Below, piece after piece: positions 3,851 to 62,916 of a stretch of DNA of 64,000 nucleotides; position 1 is the first letter of the stretch, and every line of letters begins with the position of its first letter. The stretch covers positions 13,913 through 77,912 of the forward strand of contig JBGUOH010000005.1 of NCBI GenBank assembly GCA_045117995.1. The letters run 5' to 3'. The stretch comes from Bacilli bacterium (lineage in GTDB: Bacteria > Bacillota_I > Bacilli_A > RFN20 > CAG-826). Made by a program: the position numbers and the translations under genes. The notes below the pieces were generated by a model that had not been told where the DNA came from, did not search any database, and worked only from the letters and a program-made list of their open reading frames with translations.

Positions 3851-5971
3851 ATGAAATTAGTTATTGTTGAATCACCAGCCAAATGCACAACCATCAAGCG
3901 TTATCTAGGTGACAACTATATCGTCATGGCGTCTCTTGGACATATTCGTGACTTAGCAACATCTGGTAAAGATGGTTTAGGTGTGGACGTCAAAAATGAC
4001 TTCCAACCAACATATATTGTCAATAAAGATAAACAACACATTATCCGCGAACTTAAAAACGCCATGGATAAGTGTGATGAAGTTATTCTTGCAACCGACC
4101 CTGATAGAGAAGGTGAAGCAATCGCGTGGCACTTAGCCCAAGTTTTAGGCTTGGATGTTGAAACCACTAAACGTTTGGAATTCCATGAAATTACTCGTGA
4201 TTCCATTGGTGAAGCGATGAAGAATCCAAGAACAATTAATAAGAGCCTTGTTTCTTCTCAAGAAACACGTCGTATTATTGACCGTATTATTGGCTTCAAA
4301 TTATCCACGCTTTTATTCAAAAAGATTCATTCCCGTTCTGCTGGTAGAGTGCAATCCGCAACATTAAAGATGATCGCGGACCACGATGATGAAATCGCTA
4401 AATTCGTGCCAGAAGAATATTGGACAATTACCACAAAGATCAATGCTTTTGGTAAAGAATTCAATGTCACCTTATTAAATGATAACGGTAAAGAAATCGA
4501 TTTAAAGAACGGTGAACAAGCACACGCTATCTTAGATAGAATTCCAGAAAAGCTCAATGTTTCTAAAGTTGAAAAGAAGATTAAAGTTAGTGATAGCAAA
4601 GAACCATTCATTACTTCCACCTTACAACAAGAAGCATTCTCTCGTTTAAAATTTAAAACCAAGAAAACCCAACTCGTTGCCCAACAATTATATGAAGGTA
4701 TCGAAGTTGATGGTGAACACGTTGGTTTAATTACTTATATGCGTACTGACAGCACACGTTTATCCCCAACATTCGTGGAACGTGCCACTGCCTACATTAC
4801 CGAAAGATTCGGCAAAGAGTACTTAGGTCACACCAGAAAGATTAGACAAGTGAGTATGATGCAAGACGCTCACGAAGCTATTCGTCCAACAAGTAACCAC
4901 CGTACTCCAGAATCTGTTAAAAAGTTCTTAACAAACGATCAATACAATCTTTATAAATTAATCTATAACCGCACAATTGCATCTTTGATGCAGTCCAAGA
5001 AAGATGAACAAATGAGCGTCTATCTTGAAGGTGATGGATTAACATTCAAATTAGACTTAACTCGTACCCTTTTCAAAGGCTATGAAGCCGTCTATAAAGA
5101 TACCGAAAAAGAAGAAAATCACTTTGATTCCTTCCCAGACTTCGCTGATGATGAACAATTCGAAGTGGTGCTCAAGGAAACTGAACAAAAATTCACTCAA
5201 CCTCCAGCCCATTATTCCGAAGCTAAAATCGTTAGACTCATGGAAGAAGTCGGTATCGGTCGTCCATCAACATATGCTTCCACAATCGATACGATTAGAA
5301 AAAGAAAATATGTCACCGATGAAAGTGGTATCTTAATTACCACAAAACAAGGTAACTTAACTTCTGTTGTCTTAAACAAATACTTCCCAGAAATCGTTGA
5401 TGCTAAGTACACAGCGTTAATGGAAAAGAAGTTAGATAACATTGAAGAAGGTAACCAATCCAGAAACAAGATTCTCAATGACTTCTACTATCAATTTATC
5501 GAATTATTCGATAAGGTTAGCAAAGTTATGTATAAAGAAAGCTTTGTTGAAACTGGTGAAATGTGCCCAGAATGTGGTGCTCCTCTAGTGATCAAAGAAG
5601 GTAAGAATGGCCAATTCGTTGGTTGTTCTAACTTCCCAAGCTGTAAATATGTTAAGAAACAAGAAAGTGACGCTCCAGCACCAACACCAATCGGTGAAAA
5701 GTGTCCTGAATGTGGTGGTGAATTATTGCTTAGAAACAAAAACGGTAATTCCTTCATCACTTGTAGCAATTTCCCAAAATGTCACTACACAAGAAAAGTG
5801 GCGTCCACAAATACTTCTCCAGTAGTGGAAGAAGAAAAACGTATCAAAGATTGTCCAGATTGCGATGGCTATTTGGTTAAGAAAAAAGGAAGATTCGGTT
5901 ACTTCCTTGGCTGTATCAATTATCCAAAGTGCAATCACATGGAAAAAATAATTAAAAAGAAACGGAATTAA
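3851..5971 (+). CDS. topA: DNA topoisomerase I with three C-terminal C4 zinc ribbons
   Basis: Starts MKLVIVESPAKC (Toprim domain); contains YMRTDS with the active-site Tyr; three CPECG/CPDC...C..C modules. The ORF-track start at 3797 overlaps the promoter. Confidence 0.95.
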   Translation: MKLVIVESPAKCTTIKRYLGDNYIVMASLGHIRDLATSGKDGLGVDVKNDFQPTYIVNKDKQHIIRELKNAMDKCDEVILATDPDREGEAIAWHLAQVLGLDVETTKRLEFHEITRDSIGEAMKNPRTINKSLVSSQETRRIIDRIIGFKLSTLLFKKIHSRSAGRVQSATLKMIADHDDEIAKFVPEEYWTITTKINAFGKEFNVTLLNDNGKEIDLKNGEQAHAILDRIPEKLNVSKVEKKIKVSDSKEPFITSTLQQEAFSRLKFKTKKTQLVAQQLYEGIEVDGEHVGLITYMRTDSTRLSPTFVERATAYITERFGKEYLGHTRKIRQVSMMQDAHEAIRPTSNHRTPESVKKFLTNDQYNLYKLIYNRTIASLMQSKKDEQMSVYLEGDGLTFKLDLTRTLFKGYEAVYKDTEKEENHFDSFPDFADDEQFEVVLKETEQKFTQPPAHYSEAKIVRLMEEVGIGRPSTYASTIDTIRKRKYVTDESGILITTKQGNLTSVVLNKYFPEIVDAKYTALMEKKLDNIEEGNQSRNKILNDFYYQFIELFDKVSKVMYKESFVETGEMCPECGAPLVIKEGKNGQFVGCSNFPSCKYVKKQESDAPAPTPIGEKCPECGGELLLRNKNGNSFITCSNFPKCHYTRKVASTNTSPVVEEEKRIKDCPDCDGYLVKKKGRFGYFLGCINYPKCNHMEKIIKKKRN

Positions 5972-18671: not shown

Positions 18672-18700
18672 TTGTCAATAAAAAGCAAAAATGATAAAAT
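18672..18700 (+). promoter_or_regulatory. Promoter for the nucleotidase lipoprotein gene (TTGTCA-17-TAAAAT)
   Basis: -35 at 18672-18677 and -10 at 18695-18700. GAGG SD lies 8 nt before ATG 18724. Confidence 0.45.
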
Positions 18701-18723
18701 ACAACCAAATTGAGGCAAATAGT

Positions 18724-20952
18724 ATGAAAAAAAGACATTTCCTTTTGAGCGCTCTTAGCTTGCTAGCTTTAACAATTACCGCTTGTAACTTTACTATCGG
18801 TGGTAATGGTGAACAAACTAGTAAAGATGATTCCACTTCACAAAGTGAAAGTAATGTTTCTTCTATCGAAAGCAAAGAAAGTAGCTCAACCACAATATCC
18901 ACAAATCCTAGTAGTTCAAAACCATCAAGTTCTTCCTCTACTAGTTCATCCACAAGTAGCAGCTCCTCTAGTTCAAGTAGCGCTTCTTCAAGTAGTAACT
19001 CATCCAGCAGTACTTCTTCCAGCAGCAGTTCATCTAGCAGTAGCTCGTCCAGCAGTAGTAGTTCTTCGTCAAGTTCTAGTAGCTCCTCTTCTAGCTCTTC
19101 AACTTCAAGTAGTTCTACATCCACTAGTTCAATAGACACTTCGTCATCCTCTAGCTCTTCCAGTAGTAGTTCTTCAGGTCATGACACTCCAAAAGAAGTA
19201 TCTCTAGATATCTTCGCCTTTAATGATACCCATGGTAACGTTAAGGATACTCAAGGTAAAGGTATTGGCATTGCTAAAACCACAACTCTATTGAAAGAGT
19301 TATCCGCGAACAAGAACTCCATTTTCATCTCTCAAGGTGATATGTGGCAAGGTTCTGTTGAAAGTAACTTAACCGAAGGTCATTTGGTTACCGAATGGAT
19401 GAATCAAATGGATTTCGTTTCCATGACTGTTGGTAACCACGAATTTGACTGGGGTAGACAAGGCATTATCGATAATAGTGAACTCGCTAATTTCCCAACC
19501 TTAGGTATTAACGTTGTTTATCAAAGCAATTACGAACGCGTTGAATTCTTAGAACCTTCTACTACATTTACAAGAGAAGGTGTAAAAATCGGTGTTATCG
19601 GTGCGATTGGTAACTGCTTAAGCTCTATTTCCAGTAGCCAAGTCCAAGGTCTTACCTTCTTAACAGGTAATGCTTTATCAGAACTCGTTAAAGCGGAATC
19701 CACTAGATTAAGAAATGAAGAAAACTGTGACTTCATTATTTATTCCATCCATGGTTCTGGTTCTAGAGACGCCGATGACTATTATGATGATACATTAAGC
19801 TCAGGCAACTATGTTGACTTAGTCTTAGAAGGCCATACACATGATGGTTATGCCGAACAAGATGACTATGGTGTTTACCATGTCCAATGCTATGGTTATA
19901 ACCAATGCTTCTATCAAATCACTGTTGATATGGATTTAGTCAACAATAGATATGACGTCAGAACTCCAGTGGAATACGATACCAGATACGGTGGTGAGTA
20001 CTCCAACTTAGCGGAAGACGCAGATGTTCTCGCCTTATTTGAAAAGTATAAAGACCAATATGAATATGCCTATGAAGAATTAGGTCTTAACGATACATGG
20101 AAAGACGCCACAACATTAAGACAAACTGTCGCTAACTTATACTTAGCAGCAGGTATGGAAAAATGGGGCAGCCAATATGACTTAATCCTCGGTGGTGGTT
20201 ATATATCTTGCCGTGGTAATGGTTTACATGCTGGTATGGTTATCTACGCTGATGTTCTTGAATTATTCCCATTTAACAACGATGTTGTCTTGTGTTCTAT
20301 TCAAGGCTATCGTCTCAAGAACACACAATACATCACCGGTAGCAGTAACTACTTCTGCGATTGGACATCATATGGCAACGATATTCGTTTCAACATTGAT
20401 GACAACGCAACATATTATCTCGTTACTGATACATACAACAGTGACTACGCTGCGAACCATTTAACAATTATCGATAGGTTACAAGCAGGTGGTAGATTCG
20501 CTAGAGACTTACTTGCTGAATACATTAGAGCAGGTAACTGGCATATTGAAACAACAGAACACGCTGGTACAGTTAGCGATCCAAAGACCATTGCGGAAGC
20601 TTTAGTGTACGCCGCTAACCACCCAGGTAGTAACGCCAACGATGCTGGTGCAGAAGGTTTCTTCTTCAAAGGTATTGTCTCGAGACAAGCCAATCTACAC
20701 AGCAACACAACTGGTGACTTGCGTTCCGTTTATGTAAGAGACGAGAATTCCACTGAAGAAATGCAAATCTATTACATGAAGAAATGCGAAGATGCAAACC
20801 TAGATAATGGCAAAAACTGGTCAGGTATTGACGATTTGCAAATCGACGATGAAATAGTTTTCTGGGGTAGACCATTCTACTATAATTCCAATATTTTGGA
20901 ATTCTCCAGTGGTGCATGGTGTTACTCCATTAATGGAGTATTGACCGACTAA
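18724..20952 (+). CDS. Surface lipoprotein: Ser-rich linker, 5'-nucleotidase/metallophosphoesterase, and an extra C-terminal domain
   Basis: Signal peptide with lipobox (LALTITAC). About 100-residue poly-Ser tract. Metallophosphoesterase motifs FNDTHGN, GDMWQGS, GNHEFD, GHTH. 5'-nucleotidase C-terminal-like segment (ELFPFNN). About 150 additional C-terminal residues. Confidence 0.8.
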   Translation: MKKRHFLLSALSLLALTITACNFTIGGNGEQTSKDDSTSQSESNVSSIESKESSSTTISTNPSSSKPSSSSSTSSSTSSSSSSSSSASSSSNSSSSTSSSSSSSSSSSSSSSSSSSSSSSSSSSSSTSSSSTSTSSIDTSSSSSSSSSSSSGHDTPKEVSLDIFAFNDTHGNVKDTQGKGIGIAKTTTLLKELSANKNSIFISQGDMWQGSVESNLTEGHLVTEWMNQMDFVSMTVGNHEFDWGRQGIIDNSELANFPTLGINVVYQSNYERVEFLEPSTTFTREGVKIGVIGAIGNCLSSISSSQVQGLTFLTGNALSELVKAESTRLRNEENCDFIIYSIHGSGSRDADDYYDDTLSSGNYVDLVLEGHTHDGYAEQDDYGVYHVQCYGYNQCFYQITVDMDLVNNRYDVRTPVEYDTRYGGEYSNLAEDADVLALFEKYKDQYEYAYEELGLNDTWKDATTLRQTVANLYLAAGMEKWGSQYDLILGGGYISCRGNGLHAGMVIYADVLELFPFNNDVVLCSIQGYRLKNTQYITGSSNYFCDWTSYGNDIRFNIDDNATYYLVTDTYNSDYAANHLTIIDRLQAGGRFARDLLAEYIRAGNWHIETTEHAGTVSDPKTIAEALVYAANHPGSNANDAGAEGFFFKGIVSRQANLHSNTTGDLRSVYVRDENSTEEMQIYYMKKCEDANLDNGKNWSGIDDLQIDDEIVFWGRPFYYNSNILEFSSGAWCYSINGVLTD
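18882..19176 (+). repeat. Low-complexity serine-codon tract (mixed AGY/TCN)
   Basis: Almost uninterrupted Ser/Thr coding with imperfect short direct repeats such as AGTAGCTCCTCT. The antisense ORF 18675-19139 is an artefact of this tract. Confidence 0.9.
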
Positions 20953-20973
20953 CGTTATACAAATCAGCTAAAA

Positions 20974-21003
20974 AACACTTCGAATTTCGGAGTGTTTTTA
21001 TTT
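20974..21003 (+). terminator. Intrinsic terminator after the lipoprotein gene
   Basis: Stem AACACTTC/GGAGTGTT followed by TTTTATTT. Confidence 0.65.
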
Positions 21004-21063: not shown

Positions 21064-21140
21064 ATGCGTGATAAAAGCAAAACCGGAGCAATCCGGCGAC
21101 GCAAAACTATAGGGTCTTTAGTAGATAGCCAGTTGCCGCA
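21064..21140 (+). promoter_or_regulatory. c-di-GMP-I (GEMM-I) riboswitch aptamer
   Basis: GCAAAA, then hairpin CCGGA-GCAA-TCCGG (GNRA loop, 21083-21096), then C-GACGCAAA (21097-21105), then P3 CTAT...ATAG (21107-21128), then CCAGTTGCCG. This matches GEMM-I hallmarks as I recall them. Confidence 0.75.
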
Positions 21141-21157
21141 AAGGTAACTGATTTTTT
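21130..21157 (+). terminator. Riboswitch expression platform: intrinsic terminator sharing its 5' arm with the aptamer
   Basis: Stem CAGTTGCC/GGTAACTG (one G-T pair), loop GCAAA, then ATTTTTT. ATG of the first gene is at 21169. Confidence 0.7.
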
Positions 21158-21168
21158 ATTAAAAGAAC

Positions 21169-22125
21169 ATGGCATTAAGCAACAAGAACAAAAGGACAAT
21201 CACAATTATCGCCGCATCAATGATGTGTGTTTTCACTGCGTGCGTGACCGCCACTAGTGTTCTTGCGTGGTTCTCCACCAATAAAAACGTTAATGCTGAT
21301 CATGGTAGTTTCAATATTGCTAAAGTCGATAGTGCAGTTACCGCTATTACAGTCCATGACTTCTATGGTTTAACAAGCGATGAAAGCGAATTTGGTTTCA
21401 ATCCAACCGCTAATCATACAATTACATGGGATGAACATAATGGTAGTGACTCTGGTGAATTCACTATGGGTTCATATTCTTTGAATGACCCACATCATCC
21501 AGTTATGTTCTTATTCGCTGTTGATGGTTCCAATGAAAGAATCACTCTTAAAACTGATTCCACATATTTAGCAAAGATTGAACCAGCCTTCACAGAAACA
21601 GTGGCCACCTATAGTGCGCTTTCTACATACGCTGAAGGCACAATGATTGAAGTCACCGCGGATGAAACACGTTATGGCTGTAAATCCGTCTATAAATACA
21701 CTAATTCTGAATTTGAACTTCAATGGGTCGATTTATTACAAATTAACAATCCATTAAGCTCAATTATCGATACACATTATGTCTTATTTGAAGACGATCC
21801 AAGAGATAACCAAGGTACATGTAGAACTAAATCTGGTTCTCTCGTTTTAGATGATGTCTCTACAAATAGAACATATATGCCAATTCAAAGCAGCCAATTA
21901 GGAGACAATAATCGCGCTAGCTTTGTCTCTTTCAACGCACAAGGTGAACCAGTCTTCGCCAATAGTGTGGATCTCTTCCAAGGTAGCACTAGAGGCTATT
22001 CTCACCTTGGCATTGTTATTGATTATTATGTTGAATCACTAGAATATTTATATTCTTTCTTCCTCGGCCACGTCTTCTTAAATGCTGGTCTTGGTTTTAT
22101 CTGTGACTGGAGCATGGAGGTCTAA
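21169..22125 (+). CDS. Secreted/anchored protein with a TasA/camelysin-like N-terminus (hypothetical)
   Basis: 318 aa. N-terminus KNKR, hydrophobic segment, FTAC, then VTATSVLA-WFSTNKNVNADHGSFNIAKVD. No other recognisable motif. Confidence 0.6.
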   Translation: MALSNKNKRTITIIAASMMCVFTACVTATSVLAWFSTNKNVNADHGSFNIAKVDSAVTAITVHDFYGLTSDESEFGFNPTANHTITWDEHNGSDSGEFTMGSYSLNDPHHPVMFLFAVDGSNERITLKTDSTYLAKIEPAFTETVATYSALSTYAEGTMIEVTADETRYGCKSVYKYTNSEFELQWVDLLQINNPLSSIIDTHYVLFEDDPRDNQGTCRTKSGSLVLDDVSTNRTYMPIQSSQLGDNNRASFVSFNAQGEPVFANSVDLFQGSTRGYSHLGIVIDYYVESLEYLYSFFLGHVFLNAGLGFICDWSMEV

Positions 22126-22126
22126 T

Positions 22127-25100
22127 ATGAGAAAGAATGTAAATAAGTTTATTGCATTAACTGGTATCTCTGGCTTCTCACTTGCCGCAGCGTGTATCGC
22201 TTCAGTAGCCTGGTTTATTTCTACCATCAAGATTACTGATATCAATGGTACAGGTACAACAGACGCTGCTTACTTTGCTTATGGTACAGGTACTGCTGAA
22301 GATCCATTCGGTATTAGTGAAATTAGACATTTGTCTAACCTTTCCTGGTTACAATACAAAGGTCAATTTGATGATCGACCATATTACTTTGAACTCGCTA
22401 ATGATATTAACGCTGATGGTGAAGAATATGTCATGCCACCAATTGGTACAGAAACTCACCCATTTATCGGTGTCTTTGATGGCCAAGGCTATTCCGTCAA
22501 TAACATCAAAATCACAAATGATTACACCCAATTTACTAAAAAGCCACATAACATTACCTATACACAATCTGAAGCGGAAGTTATCGGATTCTTTGGTGTG
22601 GTTGGTAATTTAGATGGTGAATCATTCTCATCTCAAACCAATTCTTTACATGATTTCACATTAGAAAATCTCACTGTTGAATCAAAAACAACCAACACGT
22701 TAATTGGTTTAGCCGCTGGATACATCAACGCTGATATGAGTGGTGTTAAGGTTGGTACGTCCACAATTAGCACTAACGGTAACTCCGCTAAGACTGCTTA
22801 TACAGATAAATTATCCGACTACGGTTTAGTGGGCTATACCACAAAAACTGGTTCATCAGGTACATTCGAACAAAGATTATCCCAATACTATAACAGTAAA
22901 TCCGATGGTGATGATCCAGGTTGGGGTGGTTCTATCGCTATTAAGGACCTTTATGGTCGTTTAGATACAATGCGTAGCAGCTATGCTTACTCTGATTCTA
23001 GTGGTAACACAGCTCTTTCATATACTGATGTTTATAATGCGGATGGGACAAGGGCAAGTCATACAAAGAGCAAAAGTATTGGCCAAGCTTTGTACAATTA
23101 CAATGAAACATCCGTTAAGAATGGCGTGACATACAACTCAAAAGTAGGTGCTCTCCAAGCAAACTATGGCAGTAATAACAATGGCGGTATTTATTATCTT
23201 TCCGGTGGCCATTATCTTGAAAAACAATACCGTGATTACACACCACATTCTGGCTGCAAGATTTATGATGGAAATGGCAATTATTTAGCTGTTAACAGCG
23301 TGACTACTGCTGGTACTAACAGTAATAACGCTGGAACTATAAAAAACACAGATTCAGACGGCGCTAGCTTGTGGAGCGTGCCAGCAAGTGGATCTGGTTA
23401 CATTTCTACTACATATTCTTACAATTACAATTCTCCAACGACTTATTATCTCTACGTTTACAACACAACTACGGTAAGATTATCTACAAGCACTAGCTAT
23501 CGTACTCAATTTACTAAATCGGTTGATCAAAACGGCAATATTCGATACACATACAATGGTTATTACCTTAGCTGTGTTTCTAACACATGGACAATGACAG
23601 AGTTACCAACCGCACCAAACCCAACAACATATAATTCATATTTTGCAAACAGTTACCAAATCTTTTATGGCAAAAACTATTTAAGCAGATCATCTACCTC
23701 CATTACTGGTTCTGCTACTGGTTTAACCGCTACCAATACTTATGGTTGGAAATTTAGAACTACCGGCAACAATGGACAAGATGTCACTCTTGAAAACGCT
23801 ATAGGCCAAAATATTTATATCTATACTCAATATAACAACAACACCTATTATTGGGTCGATAGTGATGATAGCCCTTACACAGTTGCTTTGAGCAATAGAC
23901 AAAACAACGCTAGTACATATCAAATTACTCGCGATGGTGATAACTATCGCATCACTGTTTCTGGATATGTTGTTGTTTATGATGAGACAAATAATGTGTT
24001 TTCTTCTAGATCTTCTAATACCATTAATTCGAGTACAACTTTACATCCAGGTTTGAGCATTGATACTACACAATCAATTCTTGCTAATTATGAGACACAG
24101 GTAGCTGCGACTTATAATATGGTTCCAACTTCACAGACAAGTGGTCAAGGTCCTGATCAATATCTCAATAGCTCAAGAACAACAGGTGGGATGAATTATT
24201 CTGAACAGGATGTCACATATTTACCAATTACAATTAATGGCAACAATAATTTGCAAGCAAAAGACACTAACACTGGTTATATTATCGGTGGTTCTTCTTA
24301 CACATCCACATCAAGTTCATACGGCTATGGTAACGTCAGAGTAGCTTCTTTCTATACTATTGCTGATAACTTAACGAACTACAATCGTACTAATGGTGCA
24401 TTTAATGAAGATAGTGTTTGGACTAGAGATGCAACTGGTTTGCATCAAATCGATGATGATAATAATTCGTTCGTAAAATATCTAGAATCCAAAGGTAAAG
24501 TTGAACAATCGCTAAGTGGTGGCTCAACTATTTATGGTCTTCACTTTATGTCCGCGGCTATTAATAAAGACAATGTTGTTAACGCTAAATATGCCATGAT
24601 CAATGGTGAAGAGTATTCCAACTATAAAATGCCAGCTAACTCAATTGACTTCAACTTGAAAGAACAAGGTTATGTCAATTTCTTTGCTGCCCCTTATGGC
24701 AATGATGGCGATGGTAATGCTCGTACTGTCGATAGTTTTTTCTCACTACACATGATTAAGAGAAACGGAACAAATGTTGATAATATTTACGAAATTGAAG
24801 AAGTTTACAGCGATGGTGTTCCATATCACTCATATATCTATAGATTCTCTAACGGCATGTATAGCATCCCATATTCAATCGATAAGTATAATCCTAAAAA
24901 GATTTACATTTTAAATACCAAGACACCATTAGATGATGTTGCTAATGGTGGCTATGCTGATGGAATATATACTCAAATTAATTCAACAACGTTCACCACA
25001 AATTACAGTAGCTTTAGTAGTGTTTTCCAAATGAGCTGGCTTAAAGATTATTCTTACGCTAGTGGTCAAAACGGCTTCCACCAAGGTTTCTATTTTGAAA

Positions 25101-25876
25101 TTCCTACTAACCCAGGTGAATATGCTTTAGGTACAGTTGCCAATAAATCATTCGGTGCATACTTAATGTATCTTGATATTGCCGCTAACGCAGCCAATAA
25201 AGACCAAGTCACTGCGTATGCAATTACCACTTTCCAATCTGGCTTAAAATTCCCATCAGGTGTTGATTTCAATGCTACTGATGTATCAGGTGATAATGGT
25301 GGTGAAACATTTGCGATTATTATCGCAGCAGGCGCTACAAGTGATGGCGATATTGGTTTCACTGTATCTGGAACCACAATTGCTTATGATGGCGATTTCG
25401 CCACGCAATATGCTTATAGCGAGAAACCAGCATCAGGGGCATCACCGCCTGCTGCGGCAGTCTTACCGCCTAGCACTGGTACTCGTGTCATATACACGCA
25501 TATTTTGACGACGGATTATCTCGAATGGGATATCCAGGTTACGGAAACATTAGACGCTAATGGTGATGCAACATCAACCACAATCACATCCGTTAGATGT
25601 GGTGGCGAACCAGTTACTGTTGAAGACATTCCAGAATCTTTCGTCTTGAACTCCATCAGACCACAAGTTAATAGTTACGTTGCTACCTTCACTAGATTAT
25701 CAGGTGAAAACGAATTTACTATTATCCCAACCTATGGTGGTGATGACTATAAGACAGTCAGCTTGGTTATCGAAATGAATGGTACAACCTTAGAAGTTAG
25801 CAATATCGCGACTGGATATACATTTACAATTAATGGTACTCCAGTGAGTAATAACTCTGTCTATCCTGCTTCCTAA
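22127..25876 (+). CDS. Giant (1249-aa) surface protein, beta-helix adhesin-like with lectin-like middle region (hypothetical)
   Basis: GGAGG at 22116-22120 before ATG 22127. N-terminus has LAAAC-IASVAWFISTIK. Then GTGTAEDPFGISEIRHL and FIGVFDGQGYSVNNIKI (parallel beta-helix/GLUG-like). N/T/Y-rich repeats with W-containing motifs follow. Confidence 0.65.
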   Translation: MRKNVNKFIALTGISGFSLAAACIASVAWFISTIKITDINGTGTTDAAYFAYGTGTAEDPFGISEIRHLSNLSWLQYKGQFDDRPYYFELANDINADGEEYVMPPIGTETHPFIGVFDGQGYSVNNIKITNDYTQFTKKPHNITYTQSEAEVIGFFGVVGNLDGESFSSQTNSLHDFTLENLTVESKTTNTLIGLAAGYINADMSGVKVGTSTISTNGNSAKTAYTDKLSDYGLVGYTTKTGSSGTFEQRLSQYYNSKSDGDDPGWGGSIAIKDLYGRLDTMRSSYAYSDSSGNTALSYTDVYNADGTRASHTKSKSIGQALYNYNETSVKNGVTYNSKVGALQANYGSNNNGGIYYLSGGHYLEKQYRDYTPHSGCKIYDGNGNYLAVNSVTTAGTNSNNAGTIKNTDSDGASLWSVPASGSGYISTTYSYNYNSPTTYYLYVYNTTTVRLSTSTSYRTQFTKSVDQNGNIRYTYNGYYLSCVSNTWTMTELPTAPNPTTYNSYFANSYQIFYGKNYLSRSSTSITGSATGLTATNTYGWKFRTTGNNGQDVTLENAIGQNIYIYTQYNNNTYYWVDSDDSPYTVALSNRQNNASTYQITRDGDNYRITVSGYVVVYDETNNVFSSRSSNTINSSTTLHPGLSIDTTQSILANYETQVAATYNMVPTSQTSGQGPDQYLNSSRTTGGMNYSEQDVTYLPITINGNNNLQAKDTNTGYIIGGSSYTSTSSSYGYGNVRVASFYTIADNLTNYNRTNGAFNEDSVWTRDATGLHQIDDDNNSFVKYLESKGKVEQSLSGGSTIYGLHFMSAAINKDNVVNAKYAMINGEEYSNYKMPANSIDFNLKEQGYVNFFAAPYGNDGDGNARTVDSFFSLHMIKRNGTNVDNIYEIEEVYSDGVPYHSYIYRFSNGMYSIPYSIDKYNPKKIYILNTKTPLDDVANGGYADGIYTQINSTTFTTNYSSFSSVFQMSWLKDYSYASGQNGFHQGFYFEIPTNPGEYALGTVANKSFGAYLMYLDIAANAANKDQVTAYAITTFQSGLKFPSGVDFNATDVSGDNGGETFAIIIAAGATSDGDIGFTVSGTTIAYDGDFATQYAYSEKPASGASPPAAAVLPPSTGTRVIYTHILTTDYLEWDIQVTETLDANGDATSTTITSVRCGGEPVTVEDIPESFVLNSIRPQVNSYVATFTRLSGENEFTIIPTYGGDDYKTVSLVIEMNGTTLEVSNIATGYTFTINGTPVSNNSVYPAS

Positions 25877-25921: not shown

Positions 25922-26410
25922 ATGAAAACGATTTATCTAGCGGGTGGTTGTTTTTGGGGAGTTGAACATTACTTCTCCTTAGCCAAAGGTATTATGGAAA
26001 CGGAAGTTGGTTATGCCAATGGTACTTTAGATAACCCTAAATATGAAGATCTAAAGCATGGCTTAGATAACGCCAGTGAGACAGTGAAAATCATCTATGA
26101 TGAAAACATTATTTCATTAGAAAAAATCCTAGAACTCTATCTCAGAGTGGTGGATCCATATTCCGTTAATAAACAAGGTGAAGATGAAGGTGTGCAATAT
26201 CGTACAGGCATCTACTATTTAGATGAAAACGATAAATTCGTCATCGTTAACTATTTCACAAAAGTATTAAATCCTAACTACGCAATTGAAGTTACAAGAC
26301 TCAATAAATTCTTCAAAGCAGAAGAATATCATCAGGATTATTTAAATAAGAATCCTCAAGGGTATTGCCATATCAATATGATGAAACTTCTACCTGAAGA
26401 AAGAAAGTAG
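25922..26410 (+). CDS. msrA: Peptide methionine (S)-sulfoxide reductase MsrA
   Basis: 162 aa with the GCFWG active-site motif; also YRTGIYY and EEYHQDYL. Confidence 0.93.
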   Translation: MKTIYLAGGCFWGVEHYFSLAKGIMETEVGYANGTLDNPKYEDLKHGLDNASETVKIIYDENIISLEKILELYLRVVDPYSVNKQGEDEGVQYRTGIYYLDENDKFVIVNYFTKVLNPNYAIEVTRLNKFFKAEEYHQDYLNKNPQGYCHINMMKLLPEERK

Positions 26411-27882: not shown

Positions 27883-30800
27883 ATGAAAAGAAAAACACTT
27901 TTATCTGCTGCAATATTAGCCCTGGCTCTACCAGTGGCTTTGTCACAAAGATTTACTGCTAATAATGCCCAATATATTGGTGATTACACTGAGAAGAAAC
28001 CTTACATCGAACATGGCATCAAAGTTAATGAACAAATATGTGATGAAGGCATGATCTTACTTAAAAATGATGGATTCTTACCATTTAAAAATGTGAAGAA
28101 GATTTCCATTGTTGGTAAAAATGCTTTTAATTTCAATACTGGTGCAGGTGCTCGTGCTGCAAGCGGTCCATTAGATGTTAATCCAATCAACCTTGAAGAT
28201 GCATTTAAAGATGTAGGTTTTGAAATCAATCAAACCGTCATGGACTTCTATGGTAGAAGAGGGAACACTTATGGCTGGAACAATAATACTGCTTCAGGTC
28301 CAGGTAGATCCAATGGTAATGACAGCTGGAAAGGTAATTCGCAAGTTCAGATTGGCGAGACACCAATTTCCTTATACTCCCAAGAAGTTCTCAATTCTTT
28401 TGATCAATATAAAGACGTCGCTATTCAATTCATTACCCGCGAAGGTAGTGAAGGCTGTGATATGAAGGCTATCGATGCTCGTGATTATGATCCTGCCTCT
28501 AACTCAAACTTACCAAGTGGAGTGCAAATGGATGAAATGAATAAAAATCATGCCTTGCAAATGTCTGACAACGAGCGTGAGCTTTTTAATGAATTAAAAA
28601 AGCATTTCCAACACGTTGTTATTGTTTTAAATACGCCTGTTTCATTTGAATGCGATTTACTCCAAAAAGATAGTAAAGTCAGTGGCATTATTTGGATGGG
28701 TTTACCAGGTGATACTGGTATTACTTCTTTAGTTAATATTCTCACTGGTAAAGTTAATCCTTCAGGTCGCACAGTTGATACATGGGCACGTGATTTCAAA
28801 GAAGATCCAACATATCAAAACTTCTCTGATAATTCACAAACTAATACAAATATCATGGATTTTGCTCTATCAAATAATAGAAGCAAGAAAGTGTATGTCC
28901 CACAGGATACAATGTTTAACGCTGATGGTTCACCAGTCATAAGCTATGGTTCTGACAAAATGTATATGAATCACGAAGAACCTCGCTGGTATAACGAAAC
29001 ATACAAAGTAGTGCAAGGTGGCGTTAATGGTGTTAGACCATCTGCTTATGTGACATTCGAAGAAGATATCTATAGAGATTATCGTTATTATGAAACAAAA
29101 TACGCTGATTTAGCAGCTTATGATAAAGCTGTCGCGGATAATTGGTATAACGGTAACAAAGGTGTTGTTTATCCATTTGGCTATGGTTTAAGTTACACAA
29201 AATTCGAAACCAAATTAGTCGGTAGTAACTATAACAAAAAGACCAATTTTGCAGCGGATTCTAAGAACGTTGAAATAGTGGTAAATGTTAAAAACACTGG
29301 AGACGTGGCTGGAAAAGAGGTTGTTCAAGCCTACTTTAAAGCTCCATATATTCAAGGCGAAATTGAAAAACCTTATGAAGTATTATGTGCTTTCGCCAAG
29401 ACCAAATTATTAGCGCCAGGAGAAAGCCAAAACATTAAACTTTCTTTCAATCTTCAAGATGTCGCTAGTTATGACTATCAAGACAAAAATCATAATGGCT
29501 TTAAAGGCTACGAATTAGATGCAGGTACATACCATATCTCCATCAATAAGAACGCTCACGAAGTCATTGATGAATTCGAAGTAAAACTCGAACAAGGTAT
29601 TAAATATGAAAACGACCGTTATACAGGCAAGAAAGTTGAGAATAGATTCTCCAACAACAATCTCGATTCTTCTTTACCGCTTGCTAACGATGTTGGCTAT
29701 GCATTAATGAGCCGTGCTGATATGAACGCTACATTCCCTAAACATCCAACGTATGCAGATCGTACTCTAAAAGCGGGATCGAAAGTTGAAGAATATCTCA
29801 CAACTGAATTCGATTTAATAGATGAAGAAATTCTTAAAAAAGGCTACTTCCTACCAAGCGAGGCTATTGTTACTAAACAACAAGCTACAGGTTGGGCACA
29901 AGGAAAAACATCAGATGTTACCCTGAAAATCAATGAAATGAGAGGAGTTCCTTTTGATGATCCAAAATGGGATAAACTCATTAATCAATTAACCTTTAGT
30001 GATTTAACGAAATTCTCTTATACTCACGGTATGGCTTCACAGGAAGTAAGTTCTATCGGTAAAAGCAGGACATCGGACAATTATGCTTCTGGATGCGCTA
30101 GATATGTTTTCTTTGCGCATAATACCCTTGTCGCGTCTACGTGGAACGTAGAACTCGCTGAAAAAGAAGGTAATGCCTTTGGCACAGCCTGCAATATTGC
30201 TAACCTAGCATGTTGGGCTGGTCCAAATGCATCAGTTCGTCGTTCTCCATTTGGTGGAAAAAACTTTGAATGCTATTCATCTGATCCGTTAATCACAGGC
30301 AGAATGTGCGCTAAGCTCACAAAAGCTGCCCAAGATAAAGGTGTCATTATCTATGCGACACACTTTGGCTATGGTGGTCAAGAAAAGAACCGTGAAGGTC
30401 TCATTGCTTATGAATCTGAACAAGCTTTACGTGAAATCGATTTAAAACCATTCCAAATCATCGTTGAAGAAGGAAAAGGTAGAGGCATTCAAACATCTCA
30501 TAACCGTTTAGGGTTAAGAGAAGTTCAATCATCATATCAACTTTTACACAAAGTTCTTCGTGAAGAATGGGGCTTCCAAGGCGATATCTTAACTGACATG
30601 CATCACAGTGGTAATAGCGCAATCAATTTCAAATGTTATGAATGCGCTGATTATAACATCATTGGAGGCGTTAATGGCTTAGTCGACCAAAGTGGTGGAT
30701 ATTTTGGAGCAAACCAAGCTAAATGGGACAACGAAATCGGCGCTCCAGTTCTTGAATATAACGACACTAAATATGTTTCATATACATTGTGGGGTGCTAT

Positions 30801-31266
30801 TAGAAGAGCAGCCAAAGAAGCATTATACGTCTACGCTAATTCATTCATGACCAATAAAGGTTTAATCCAATCCACAGATGATATTGAAGTTATTATCGAT
30901 AAAGAAATCCGCGTTGGTGATGATGTTAATATCTCCGTTAATAATAAATCTAATGGTCTCACCTTAGTGGTGGATAAAGATACTCCATTACCAGAAGGAT
31001 TAAAACTTGAGAATAACACTATTACTGGTAAACCAGTAAAAGAAGGCTCATATACTGTTAACTTCTTACTAAAATCTGGTGATGAAATCAAATCAGGTAA
31101 AGAAGTTAAACTTGAAATATTGCCAGCCCAAGAAGGCTCAAAGATTGTAGCAAAGAAGAAAGGCTGCTTTGGTGAACTCAATAGTTCAATTCTTGCTACT
31201 GGCTTAGTGGGCTTATCTGTAATCGCCTTGATTATCGCTAAGAAAAGAAAAGAAAGATTAGCGTAA
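27883..31266 (+). CDS. Glycoside hydrolase family 3, circularly permuted, with an Ig-like domain and a C-terminal membrane anchor
   Basis: Signal peptide. The GH3 C-terminal-type domain comes first (ILLKNDGFLPF, NPSGRTVDTW, FGYGLSYTKFE), then an Fn3-like domain (VQAYFKAP), then the GH3 barrel (SPFGGKNFECYSSDP, THFGYGGQEKNREG, GDILTDM), then LPEGLKLENNTITGKP, then TM plus KKRKERLA. Confidence 0.8.
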   Translation: MKRKTLLSAAILALALPVALSQRFTANNAQYIGDYTEKKPYIEHGIKVNEQICDEGMILLKNDGFLPFKNVKKISIVGKNAFNFNTGAGARAASGPLDVNPINLEDAFKDVGFEINQTVMDFYGRRGNTYGWNNNTASGPGRSNGNDSWKGNSQVQIGETPISLYSQEVLNSFDQYKDVAIQFITREGSEGCDMKAIDARDYDPASNSNLPSGVQMDEMNKNHALQMSDNERELFNELKKHFQHVVIVLNTPVSFECDLLQKDSKVSGIIWMGLPGDTGITSLVNILTGKVNPSGRTVDTWARDFKEDPTYQNFSDNSQTNTNIMDFALSNNRSKKVYVPQDTMFNADGSPVISYGSDKMYMNHEEPRWYNETYKVVQGGVNGVRPSAYVTFEEDIYRDYRYYETKYADLAAYDKAVADNWYNGNKGVVYPFGYGLSYTKFETKLVGSNYNKKTNFAADSKNVEIVVNVKNTGDVAGKEVVQAYFKAPYIQGEIEKPYEVLCAFAKTKLLAPGESQNIKLSFNLQDVASYDYQDKNHNGFKGYELDAGTYHISINKNAHEVIDEFEVKLEQGIKYENDRYTGKKVENRFSNNNLDSSLPLANDVGYALMSRADMNATFPKHPTYADRTLKAGSKVEEYLTTEFDLIDEEILKKGYFLPSEAIVTKQQATGWAQGKTSDVTLKINEMRGVPFDDPKWDKLINQLTFSDLTKFSYTHGMASQEVSSIGKSRTSDNYASGCARYVFFAHNTLVASTWNVELAEKEGNAFGTACNIANLACWAGPNASVRRSPFGGKNFECYSSDPLITGRMCAKLTKAAQDKGVIIYATHFGYGGQEKNREGLIAYESEQALREIDLKPFQIIVEEGKGRGIQTSHNRLGLREVQSSYQLLHKVLREEWGFQGDILTDMHHSGNSAINFKCYECADYNIIGGVNGLVDQSGGYFGANQAKWDNEIGAPVLEYNDTKYVSYTLWGAIRRAAKEALYVYANSFMTNKGLIQSTDDIEVIIDKEIRVGDDVNISVNNKSNGLTLVVDKDTPLPEGLKLENNTITGKPVKEGSYTVNFLLKSGDEIKSGKEVKLEILPAQEGSKIVAKKKGCFGELNSSILATGLVGLSVIALIIAKKRKERLA

Positions 31267-62033: not shown

Positions 62034-62057
62034 AAAGAAAAAACCGCATCAGCGGTT
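62034..62057 (-). terminator. Intrinsic terminator after the 286-aa membrane-anchored protein gene
   Basis: Stem AACCGC/GCGGTT overlapping the stop codon, followed by a T-rich tract on the minus strand. Confidence 0.6.
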
Positions 62058-62916
62058 AGTTCTTAACAATCTTTCCGAATAAGTCGGTGTGTGACCAACA
62101 TTTCTTCAAGGTACGGGCTCTTTCTAAGTCTGTGCCACCGTCAACTGTGAAGATGACATCACTTAAGCCTTTGACTTTTTGATCAGCAAGAGCGATACCG
62201 TTCTTAGCGCAATCATCGGAGAAATCGAAGTACATAAGTAATGGAGTGTTGATTGGGCAAGAATCTAAGCTATCAGATGTGAAATTGCTTTCATATGTGC
62301 TGACGCTGTAGTTCTTGTTGAGAGCGTAGTAGGTTTTTGGTAAGTAGTTACCATCAACTAATGTTTCGAATAAATCGTAGTGGTTTAGCCAAACTTTGTC
62401 GAATAAGTTGACTTCTTCGTTGTCGATTTTTTCTGTGGTATCTGTGTAGATGGTCCAGAGTTTGAAATCACCTGCTAAAGCATCTTTTTTATCACCAACG
62501 AATTCTTTATCGTTGTTTTTCCATTTTTCTTGGAATGTCTTTAAGCCGCCGTATAAATCTTCACAGCTGCTGTCATCTTTGACAAAGGCAACGAAGAATC
62601 TTTCGCCTCTCTTGTCAGCTTTGAGTTTATCAACATCACCGTTTTCGATGTATGTGAGGAACTTATCGACTTCAGAACCAGCGTTGTTGGAATCGAATTT
62701 ATTAGCGTTCTTTAAACTTAATTGGTTTTTAGCGAAATATTTATTTGCGTCATCGCTGGAATCGAACCAACCTTTAACACCATCAATGATGTGTGGGATG
62801 GCGAAGATAACTGCGAAGATAGCACCGACGATCAACAAAGGTTGAATCCATGCTGTTTCTTTAATCCAACGGCCGATTCTCGCGAAAAATCCGCCAATTG
62901 CTCTTAATACTACCAT
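62056..62916 (-). CDS. Hypothetical N-terminally anchored extracytoplasmic protein
   Basis: 286 aa with one TM segment (IQPLLIVGAIFAVIFAI). AGGAGG SD. No family recognised. Confidence 0.6.
   Translation of the reverse strand: MVVLRAIGGFFARIGRWIKETAWIQPLLIVGAIFAVIFAIPHIIDGVKGWFDSSDDANKYFAKNQLSLKNANKFDSNNAGSEVDKFLTYIENGDVDKLKADKRGERFFVAFVKDDSSCEDLYGGLKTFQEKWKNNDKEFVGDKKDALAGDFKLWTIYTDTTEKIDNEEVNLFDKVWLNHYDLFETLVDGNYLPKTYYALNKNYSVSTYESNFTSDSLDSCPINTPLLMYFDFSDDCAKNGIALADQKVKGLSDVIFTVDGGTDLERARTLKKCWSHTDLFGKIVKN

Follow-up and report, generated by a model that had tools for sequence, protein, structure and literature searches.

A c-di-GMP riboswitch-led gene pair of a Bacilli bacterium encodes two otherwise unrelated proteins with a common N-terminal tag

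A 64,000-nucleotide stretch of DNA from a Bacilli bacterium (assembly GCA_045117995.1, contig JBGUOH010000005.1, positions 13,913 to 77,912; hereafter the window) carries two adjacent genes, which we call A (21169–22125) and B (22127–25876), whose products share a short N-terminal segment. The locus raises the question of why two proteins should share this segment and which enzyme, if any, would cut it. An earlier note on this DNA had described the segment as a tag with a lipobox-like element, had placed both proteins under riboswitch control, and had proposed that A is a fibre subunit of the TasA/camelysin class on which B, a giant adhesin, would dock. Our analysis upholds parts of this proposal and replaces others: A and B are probably a pair of adhesins, induced by cyclic dimeric guanosine monophosphate (c-di-GMP), that carry a lineage-specific sorting signal of the SipW type.

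The N-terminal tag and its conservation

In A, the tag (21169–21273, on the forward strand, like all features of the A–B unit described below) consists of a Lys/Arg-rich n-region, a hydrophobic helix of about 20 residues and the sequence V-L-A33|W34-F35, with cleavage predicted between nucleotides 21267 and 21268. In B (22127–22216), the residues MRKNVNK are followed by a hydrophobic helix and S-V-A28|W29-F30, with cleavage predicted between 22210 and 22211. Comparison of A with B by BLASTP gave nothing significant, and profiles of the two families aligned in the N-terminal 39 columns only (hhalign probability 94.1%, E = 1.3e-7), which bears out the claim that the tag is common to otherwise unrelated proteins. 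A third family bearing the tag likewise gave an alignment with the A family (columns 10–55, 46 in all; probability 90%, E = 1.6e-6).

The resemblance greatly exceeds what chance would produce, and the tag was kept in orthologues, with A33-W34-F35 invariant in 22/22 homologues of A. In a wider set, comprising the best 150 of 395 clusters (50% identity) at E ≤ 1e-3, 128 of the 134 complete N-termini had the W, and 115 of those 128 had AWF. The B family gave at least 383 matches, of which 120 were inspected; among the 117 with W at residue ~28–30, which form the base of all B counts given here, position −1 was Ala or Ser in 116, position −3 was Thr or Ser in 105, and position +2 was Phe in 110. 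With −3 and −1 restricted to small residues and W-F immediately following, the pattern points to a type I signal-peptidase site, TxA|WF, in which W is P1′ and F is P2′. The earlier note had already suspected such a site, and the conserved positions, together with an aromatic P2′ as in TasA, strengthen that suggestion.

When a hidden Markov model (HMM) of the tag alone, trained on the A and B families, was run against the open reading frames (ORFs) of the window, it retrieved A (E = 1.2e-10) and B (E = 1.6e-12), the next best match having an E value of 2.9, and it passed over the window's true lipoproteins. The same model picked up proteins outside its training set, encoded by a second operon in related genomes, at E values of 1e-7 to 1e-2. 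The search for further tagged proteins was thus productive in the relatives, while A and B were the only ones among the window ORFs. A 286-aa product of the reverse strand (62056–62916) with no Pfam match has a transmembrane (TM) segment and then G-W-F-D-S-S; despite this likeness to the tag, the tag HMM did not retrieve it, and it was set aside. A class III signal of type IV (pre)pilins was rejected on inspection, since G-F-x-x-x-E is lacking and the conserved residues are found where the helix ends, on its C-terminal side.

The riboswitch, the operon and its two products

The product of gene A, a tagged protein of 318 aa, begins with MALSNKNKRTITIIAASMMCVFTACVTATSVLAWFSTNKNV and belongs to a novel all-beta family. 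The best start of gene B is the ATG at 22127 (MRKNVNKFIALTGISGFSLAAACIASVAWFISTIKI), the same Met at which its homologues begin, and the product is a 1249-aa tagged, multidomain, all-beta surface protein. Only 1 nt separates the stop codon of A from the start codon of B, indicating that the two genes form one operon. The Shine-Dalgarno sequence of B, GGAGG (22115–22119), 7 nt upstream of its start, lies within the last codons of A, which suggests that their translation is coupled. Wherever the pair occurs in related loci, the A-like gene stands directly 5′ of the B-like one. The 5′ boundary of the unit is a terminator-like hairpin (20971–20999; a 13-bp stem, then a T-run) that ends the upstream lipoprotein gene.

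A c-di-GMP-I riboswitch aptamer was found at 21066–21141, 28 nt 5′ of the start codon of A (RF01051, 57.1 bits against a gathering score of 35), and a homologous aptamer lies 5′ of A in 11/11 related gene contexts with upstream DNA. This argues for the c-di-GMP control that had been proposed. The picture of two riboswitch-controlled proteins is amended in that the pair has only one aptamer ahead of it (21066–21140/41) and forms a single bicistron. In a narrower scan, the aptamer also resembled the GGC variant RF03167 (52 bits, below the gathering score of 59), so that it appears borderline between the two classes. That gathering score was exceeded (61–64 bits) by the aptamers at L005:9904-9978, L006:9905-9979 and L011:9142-9216 (related loci are numbered L, with positions after the colon). 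Two c-di-GMP-I aptamers about 400 nt apart, at L009:5008-5086 and 5499-5578, precede the A orthologue of a metagenome-assembled genome (MAG) from reindeer rumen and may be a tandem arrangement.

The aptamer runs into a putative expression platform (21130–21160), made up of a terminator-like hairpin (21130–21150; CAGTTGCC-GCAAA-GGTAACTG) and a T-run. The 5′ arm of the hairpin, CAGTTGCC, falls within the 3′ arm of the aptamer, and an overlap of GCCAGTTGCC with the terminator stem recurs in most related loci. This shared arm suggests that the leader is an ON switch, in which binding of c-di-GMP to the aptamer would prevent the overlapping terminator from forming and thereby turn on the A–B operon.

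Neither A nor B had a match in Pfam or NCBIfam at E ≤ 1 or a usable one in PHROGs, and the profile of the A family gave 0 matches among PDB sequences at E ≤ 10. The AF2 model of A (predicted local distance difference test score, pLDDT, 77.5) consists of a helix (residues 5–37), a low-confidence linker (33–44) and an all-beta core. A Foldseek search of this model against the PDB gave a best E value of 0.044, with TasA not among the 50 matches listed. Over the mature domain, Peptidase_M73, NF046066 and TIGR04090 matched neither A nor B, and the tagged paralogues of the second operon had no TasA, camelysin or BsaA family match outside the signal region. A is thus not detectably a TasA/camelysin-type protein, contrary to what had been proposed for it, and the model suggests a new fold. 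The family has a C-terminal C-D-W that is invariant (C312-D313-W314, window 22102–22110; CD[WSFY] in 130/147 representatives) and four nearly invariant histidines, H63, H83, H109 and H110, the last two in an H-H-P motif (H109-H110-P111, 21493–21501). Judging from this conservation, the C-D-W and the histidines could mark a metal, catalytic or cross-linking site.

Protein B was modelled over residues 50–1249 with a pLDDT of 86.1. Structure searches with this model returned beta-trefoil arrays (fascin, E = 2e-4) as well as modules from botulinum complexes, of the receptor-binding or haemagglutinin kind (BoNT Hc, NTNHA and HA70, at probabilities of 0.6–0.95), and positions 37–131 of the B profile matched the N-terminal module of 3n6z, annotated as a 'putative immunoglobulin A1 protease' (E = 1.5e-6). 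B resembles 3n6z, fascin and botulinum Hc/HA at domain level only, the TM-scores for the full-length query being 0.06–0.1, and no catalytic motif came to light in it. These fold matches suggest that B, with an IgA1-protease-like N-terminal module and beta-trefoil or lectin-like modules, is a large glycan-binding adhesin, in line with the role that the earlier note had given it. One B homologue, P0037 (1422 aa), bears a PMSR domain, through either a fusion of genes or faulty gene calling. At L011:13795-19367, a second riboswitch-led module encodes an A-like tagged protein of 282 aa, a tagged protein of 504 aa and a B-like protein of 1007 aa, the N-terminus of which lacks the W (…TFTLSLFIKD).

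A companion operon with an ER-type signal peptidase in related genomes

Relatives of A came from MAGs of rumen and gut origin whose labels read uncultured Erysipelotrichaceae or Bacilli. RUG14382 (CADBXE01) has an A that is 92% identical to that of the window. In the more distant of these genomes (L001, L010, L012, L014, L015 and L016), the A–B pair is accompanied, at a distance of a few kb, by a second operon under riboswitch control. Its gene order is conserved, beginning with a membrane protein of about 270 aa that contains the motif KKRKRRR...VAFLGxxVGxFxV. Then come 2–4 tagged proteins, in which the tag takes the form [GS][ST]x[AS]-W-[FY] and frequently precedes xY[AS]TRA; a membrane-anchored AAA+ protein of the McrB type (505 aa; PDB 6hz4, E = 7e-6; PADLOC candidate PDC-M26A, E = 1e-36); a partner of 457–971 aa with a weak DUF2357 match; and a signal peptidase of 255–286 aa that is of the endoplasmic reticulum (ER) type and SipW-like. 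Directly after the peptidase follow an EAL protein of about 510 aa with an N-terminal TM segment, a PNP_UDP_1-like protein of about 245 aa and a second EAL protein of about 1000 aa.

The assignment of the peptidase rests on the protein encoded at L010:19965-20732, which scored 56.1 bits with TIGR02228, above the cutoff of 51.85, and matched the SipW model at E = 1e-17. In an alignment of 20 members of its family, the Ser of SMxP (S68) and the His of TH (H112) were invariant and there was no catalytic Lys. The peptidase gene shared an operon with genes for tagged proteins in 5/5 contexts retrieved (L010, L013, L014, L015 and L016), four of which are also among the six in which the A–B pair neighbours the second operon. 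The presence of the tag on proteins encoded beside an ER-type peptidase supports, by association, the view that the tag defines a class of substrates. To this extent the idea of a SipW-type peptidase, raised before, holds in the relatives; the corresponding signal model, TIGR04088, gave no score for A or B.

Combined with the riboswitch and the conservation of the tag, this association leads us to favour the following sequence of events. Once c-di-GMP has switched on the operon, A and B would be co-transcribed and exported to the cell surface by one N-terminal sorting signal, in which a basic n-region leads into some 20 hydrophobic residues and then a c-region of the form T/S-x-A/S|W-F. By analogy with TasA and CalY, a dedicated ER-type peptidase, rather than the housekeeping P-type LepB, would cut the tag at A|W and expose an N-terminus beginning with W-F. 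In relatives, such a peptidase is encoded by the last assembly gene of the companion operon, which also specifies the 2–4 W-F/W-Y-tagged subunits, the membrane protein, the McrB-like nucleoside triphosphatase (NTPase) with its DUF2357-like partner, and the EAL phosphodiesterases. B would act as the lectin-like adhesin and A, with its new fold unlike that of TasA, as its obligate partner.

Several results weigh against this reading. The TIGR04088 HMM (cutoff 19 bits) found no match at E ≤ 10 in the N-termini of A and B; sequences of TasA, CalY and SipW served as controls, and those of TasA and CalY scored 38 and 50.6 bits with this model; the tag of a paralogue, L010:7921, reached 13.1 bits (E = 0.08), again below the cutoff. 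When the A family and a paralogue family were aligned with TasA and CalY by hhalign, neither comparison was significant (probability 0.7–1.9%), and the tag HMM gave only noise against TasA and CalY. The peptidase family has GIN in place of the GDN of SipW and so lacks the Asp. In the AF2 model, AWF is left at the end of the A helix, and the hydrophobic stretch is long enough for a membrane anchor. Finally, the 64-kb window lacks both the ER-type peptidase and the second operon, as do the ±10 kb around A–B in the closest relatives (L005–L009); the sole signal peptidase of the window is LepB (630–1406), which is P-type (TIGR02227, 65.8 bits), as had been stated before. Given that TIGR04088 fails and hhalign is not significant, the tag would act like a SipW-type signal, but it lies outside the curated class.

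The absence of the peptidase from these neighbourhoods is also what lends some weight to an uncleaved type II signal anchor, in which the helix would stay in the membrane, A-W-F would serve as an interfacial aromatic belt or lateral contact motif, and the SipW-like enzyme would serve other substrates. The modelling of the hydrophobic stretch as one helix that includes AWF fits this alternative, and neighbouring surface enzymes of the window are membrane-tethered, via lipoboxes or a C-terminal TM segment. An anchor would, however, need neither small residues at −3 and −1, which are conserved in 105/117 and 116/117 B homologues, nor an invariant W-F across unrelated families, and the tag occurs together with the peptidase gene in all five operons. 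The conservation of −3 and −1 therefore weakens the anchor, which we regard as unlikely. Far less credible is that A and B are ordinary lipoproteins, cut by signal peptidase II before Cys25 and Cys23, respectively, with AWF incidental. The window sequences do contain F-T-A-C and A-A-A-C, but the Cys is absent from most orthologues, occurring in 5/22 A homologues and, at the equivalent position, in 14/117 B homologues. It sits in the middle of the hydrophobic helix, whereas the Cys of the window's true lipoproteins precedes polar residues. Because the Cys is not conserved, we do not consider A and B to be lipoproteins; their lipobox-like cysteines, which the earlier note had made part of the tag, appear to be an accident of this strain, and the apparent lipoboxes are misleading for annotation.

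The proposal that A is a fibre subunit with the TasA/camelysin jelly-roll, and that B docks by donating the same N-terminal strand, draws on three observations. The hhalign alignment, although not significant, sets A33|W34 on A27|A28 of TasA; A and the third tagged family have a conserved F-x-[IV] about 14 residues after the W, which loosely resembles YF-x9-F of CalY; and the pairing of A with B is obligatory wherever the pair occurs. Considering that A matched neither Peptidase_M73 nor TasA nor BsaA, that its profile matched no PDB sequence at E ≤ 10, and that TasA was not among the 50 structural matches listed for its core model, we judge this proposal improbable. The sorting signal of the SipW type, cut by an ER-type enzyme, remains the reading that we prefer.

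A broader interpretation, which we put forward only tentatively, is that uncultured Bacilli of gut and rumen possess a surface-filament or adhesion system, so far undescribed, of which A and B form the adhesin module. Such a system would be induced through c-di-GMP riboswitches and built from subunits with a TxA|W-F/Y signal that a divergent ER-type peptidase would process; the McrB-like NTPase and its DUF2357-like partner would help in assembly or export, and the EAL enzymes would provide negative feedback. The last point is suggested by the co-transcription of EAL phosphodiesterases in a c-di-GMP-induced operon.

Some features of the companion operon deserve separate mention. The genes of the McrB-type and DUF2357-like proteins (L010:16943-19965, L013:5546-9998, L014:7004-10001, L015:7093-9989 and L016:6983-10008) are translationally coupled, with the subunit genes on one side and the SipW-like gene on the other; they could be an McrBC-like pair belonging to a surface-protein operon or, alternatively, an embedded defence module. 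The EAL/PNP_UDP_1/EAL trio was located at L010:20725-23039, L013:10831-16195, L014:10843-16155, L015:10782-16124 and L016:10858-16172, and GGDEF/EAL genes flank the clusters in relatives. One subunit (L013:2052-3182; …GSTIAWYQYSTRANVSF…) gave weak phmmer matches (E = 0.004 at best) to V domains of antibody light chains, which we judged spurious and which are likely caused by an AWYQ motif resembling framework region 2 of antibodies. Weak matches of subunits of this operon to ribosomal S5, from a single-sequence PDB search, were likewise judged spurious.

Comparison with known systems, and neighbouring genes

The CalY cleavage site is TFA|YF. At the TasA site, TWA|AF, Phe likewise occupies P2′, and it is SipW, a dedicated peptidase of the ER type, that processes TasA (PMC10269814). 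No verified substrate of LepB has an aromatic P2′ residue, and such a residue impedes the P-type enzyme and calls for SipW (PMC10269814). The TasA/TapA–SipW system of Bacillus subtilis and the CalY/TasA–SipW system of B. cereus thus resemble the one considered here in the T-x-A|x-F core with its aromatic P2′, in a dedicated ER-type Ser/His peptidase encoded with its substrates (here, in the relatives), and in several unrelated substrates that share one signal in a biofilm or adhesion context. They differ in that here the W is fixed at P1′, A and B are not scored by TIGR04088, and the substrates have neither the fold nor the family of TasA. Unlike SipW, the peptidase of the relatives has a conserved C-terminal cytoplasmic tail in addition to lacking the Asp of GDN, and its operon adds the membrane McrB-like NTPase, the DUF2357-like protein and the EAL enzymes. 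Control is by c-di-GMP riboswitches, whereas TasA and CalY are under repressors of the SinR/AbrB type.

In the sipW-bsaABC operon of Clostridium perfringens, SipW is required to export the fibre-forming BsaA subunits, and the large accessory protein BsaC, which has a vWA domain, carries a signal sequence that SipW is presumed to cleave as well (PMC7395162, PMC11580942). The combination of SipW-dependent fibre subunits with a large accessory protein is akin to our proposal, and one paralogue tag had a weak match to TIGR04090 (E = 0.023), confined to the signal region. There is, however, no significant homology to BsaA, and the BsaR/S two-component system takes the place that the riboswitches have here.

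Among the Bacillota, some adhesins and pili are under c-di-GMP riboswitches; adhesin genes of C. difficile and the B. cereus group, for example, sit behind c-di-GMP-I or c-di-GMP-II riboswitches, and their products are sortase-anchored (LPXTG) or type IV pilins. The A–B leader resembles these in having a GEMM-I aptamer ahead of an adhesin gene and in its predicted ON logic; it differs through the N-terminal TxA|WF signal and, in relatives, through a second riboswitch that would drive a processing and assembly operon. Literature searches that combined SipW with a c-di-GMP riboswitch turned up no account of a system like this.

If the signal is cut as we propose, the small class of sorting systems with a dedicated signal peptidase (TasA/SipW and BsaA/SipW) would extend to unannotated families in uncultured rumen and gut Bacilli. 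These families are sizeable, with about 400 A clusters at 50% identity, at least 383 B homologues and at least 663 peptidase homologues, none of which has a Pfam family. TxA|WF at residue ~28–35 would provide a rule for finding further substrates, and a riboswitch regulon would be tied directly to protein sorting. An McrBC-type NTPase pair may, moreover, have been recruited into a surface-assembly operon.

Downstream of B, at a distance of 45 nt, lies msrA (25922–26410; PMSR, E = 3e-52); no terminator was detected between the two genes, and the position of msrA after B is syntenic in L005–L008. Further downstream, the gene at 27883–31266 encodes a family-3 glycoside hydrolase of 1127 aa with its domains in C-then-N order; its C-terminus, a hydrophobic segment and then KKRKERLA, is a membrane tether rather than a sortase signal. 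The lipoprotein gene upstream of the A–B unit (18691–20952) encodes a Metallophos domain and a classical lipobox, LTITAC|N, followed by a Ser-rich linker of about 110 residues that is almost pure poly-Ser. The opposite strand yields a spurious poly-Leu/Glu ORF.

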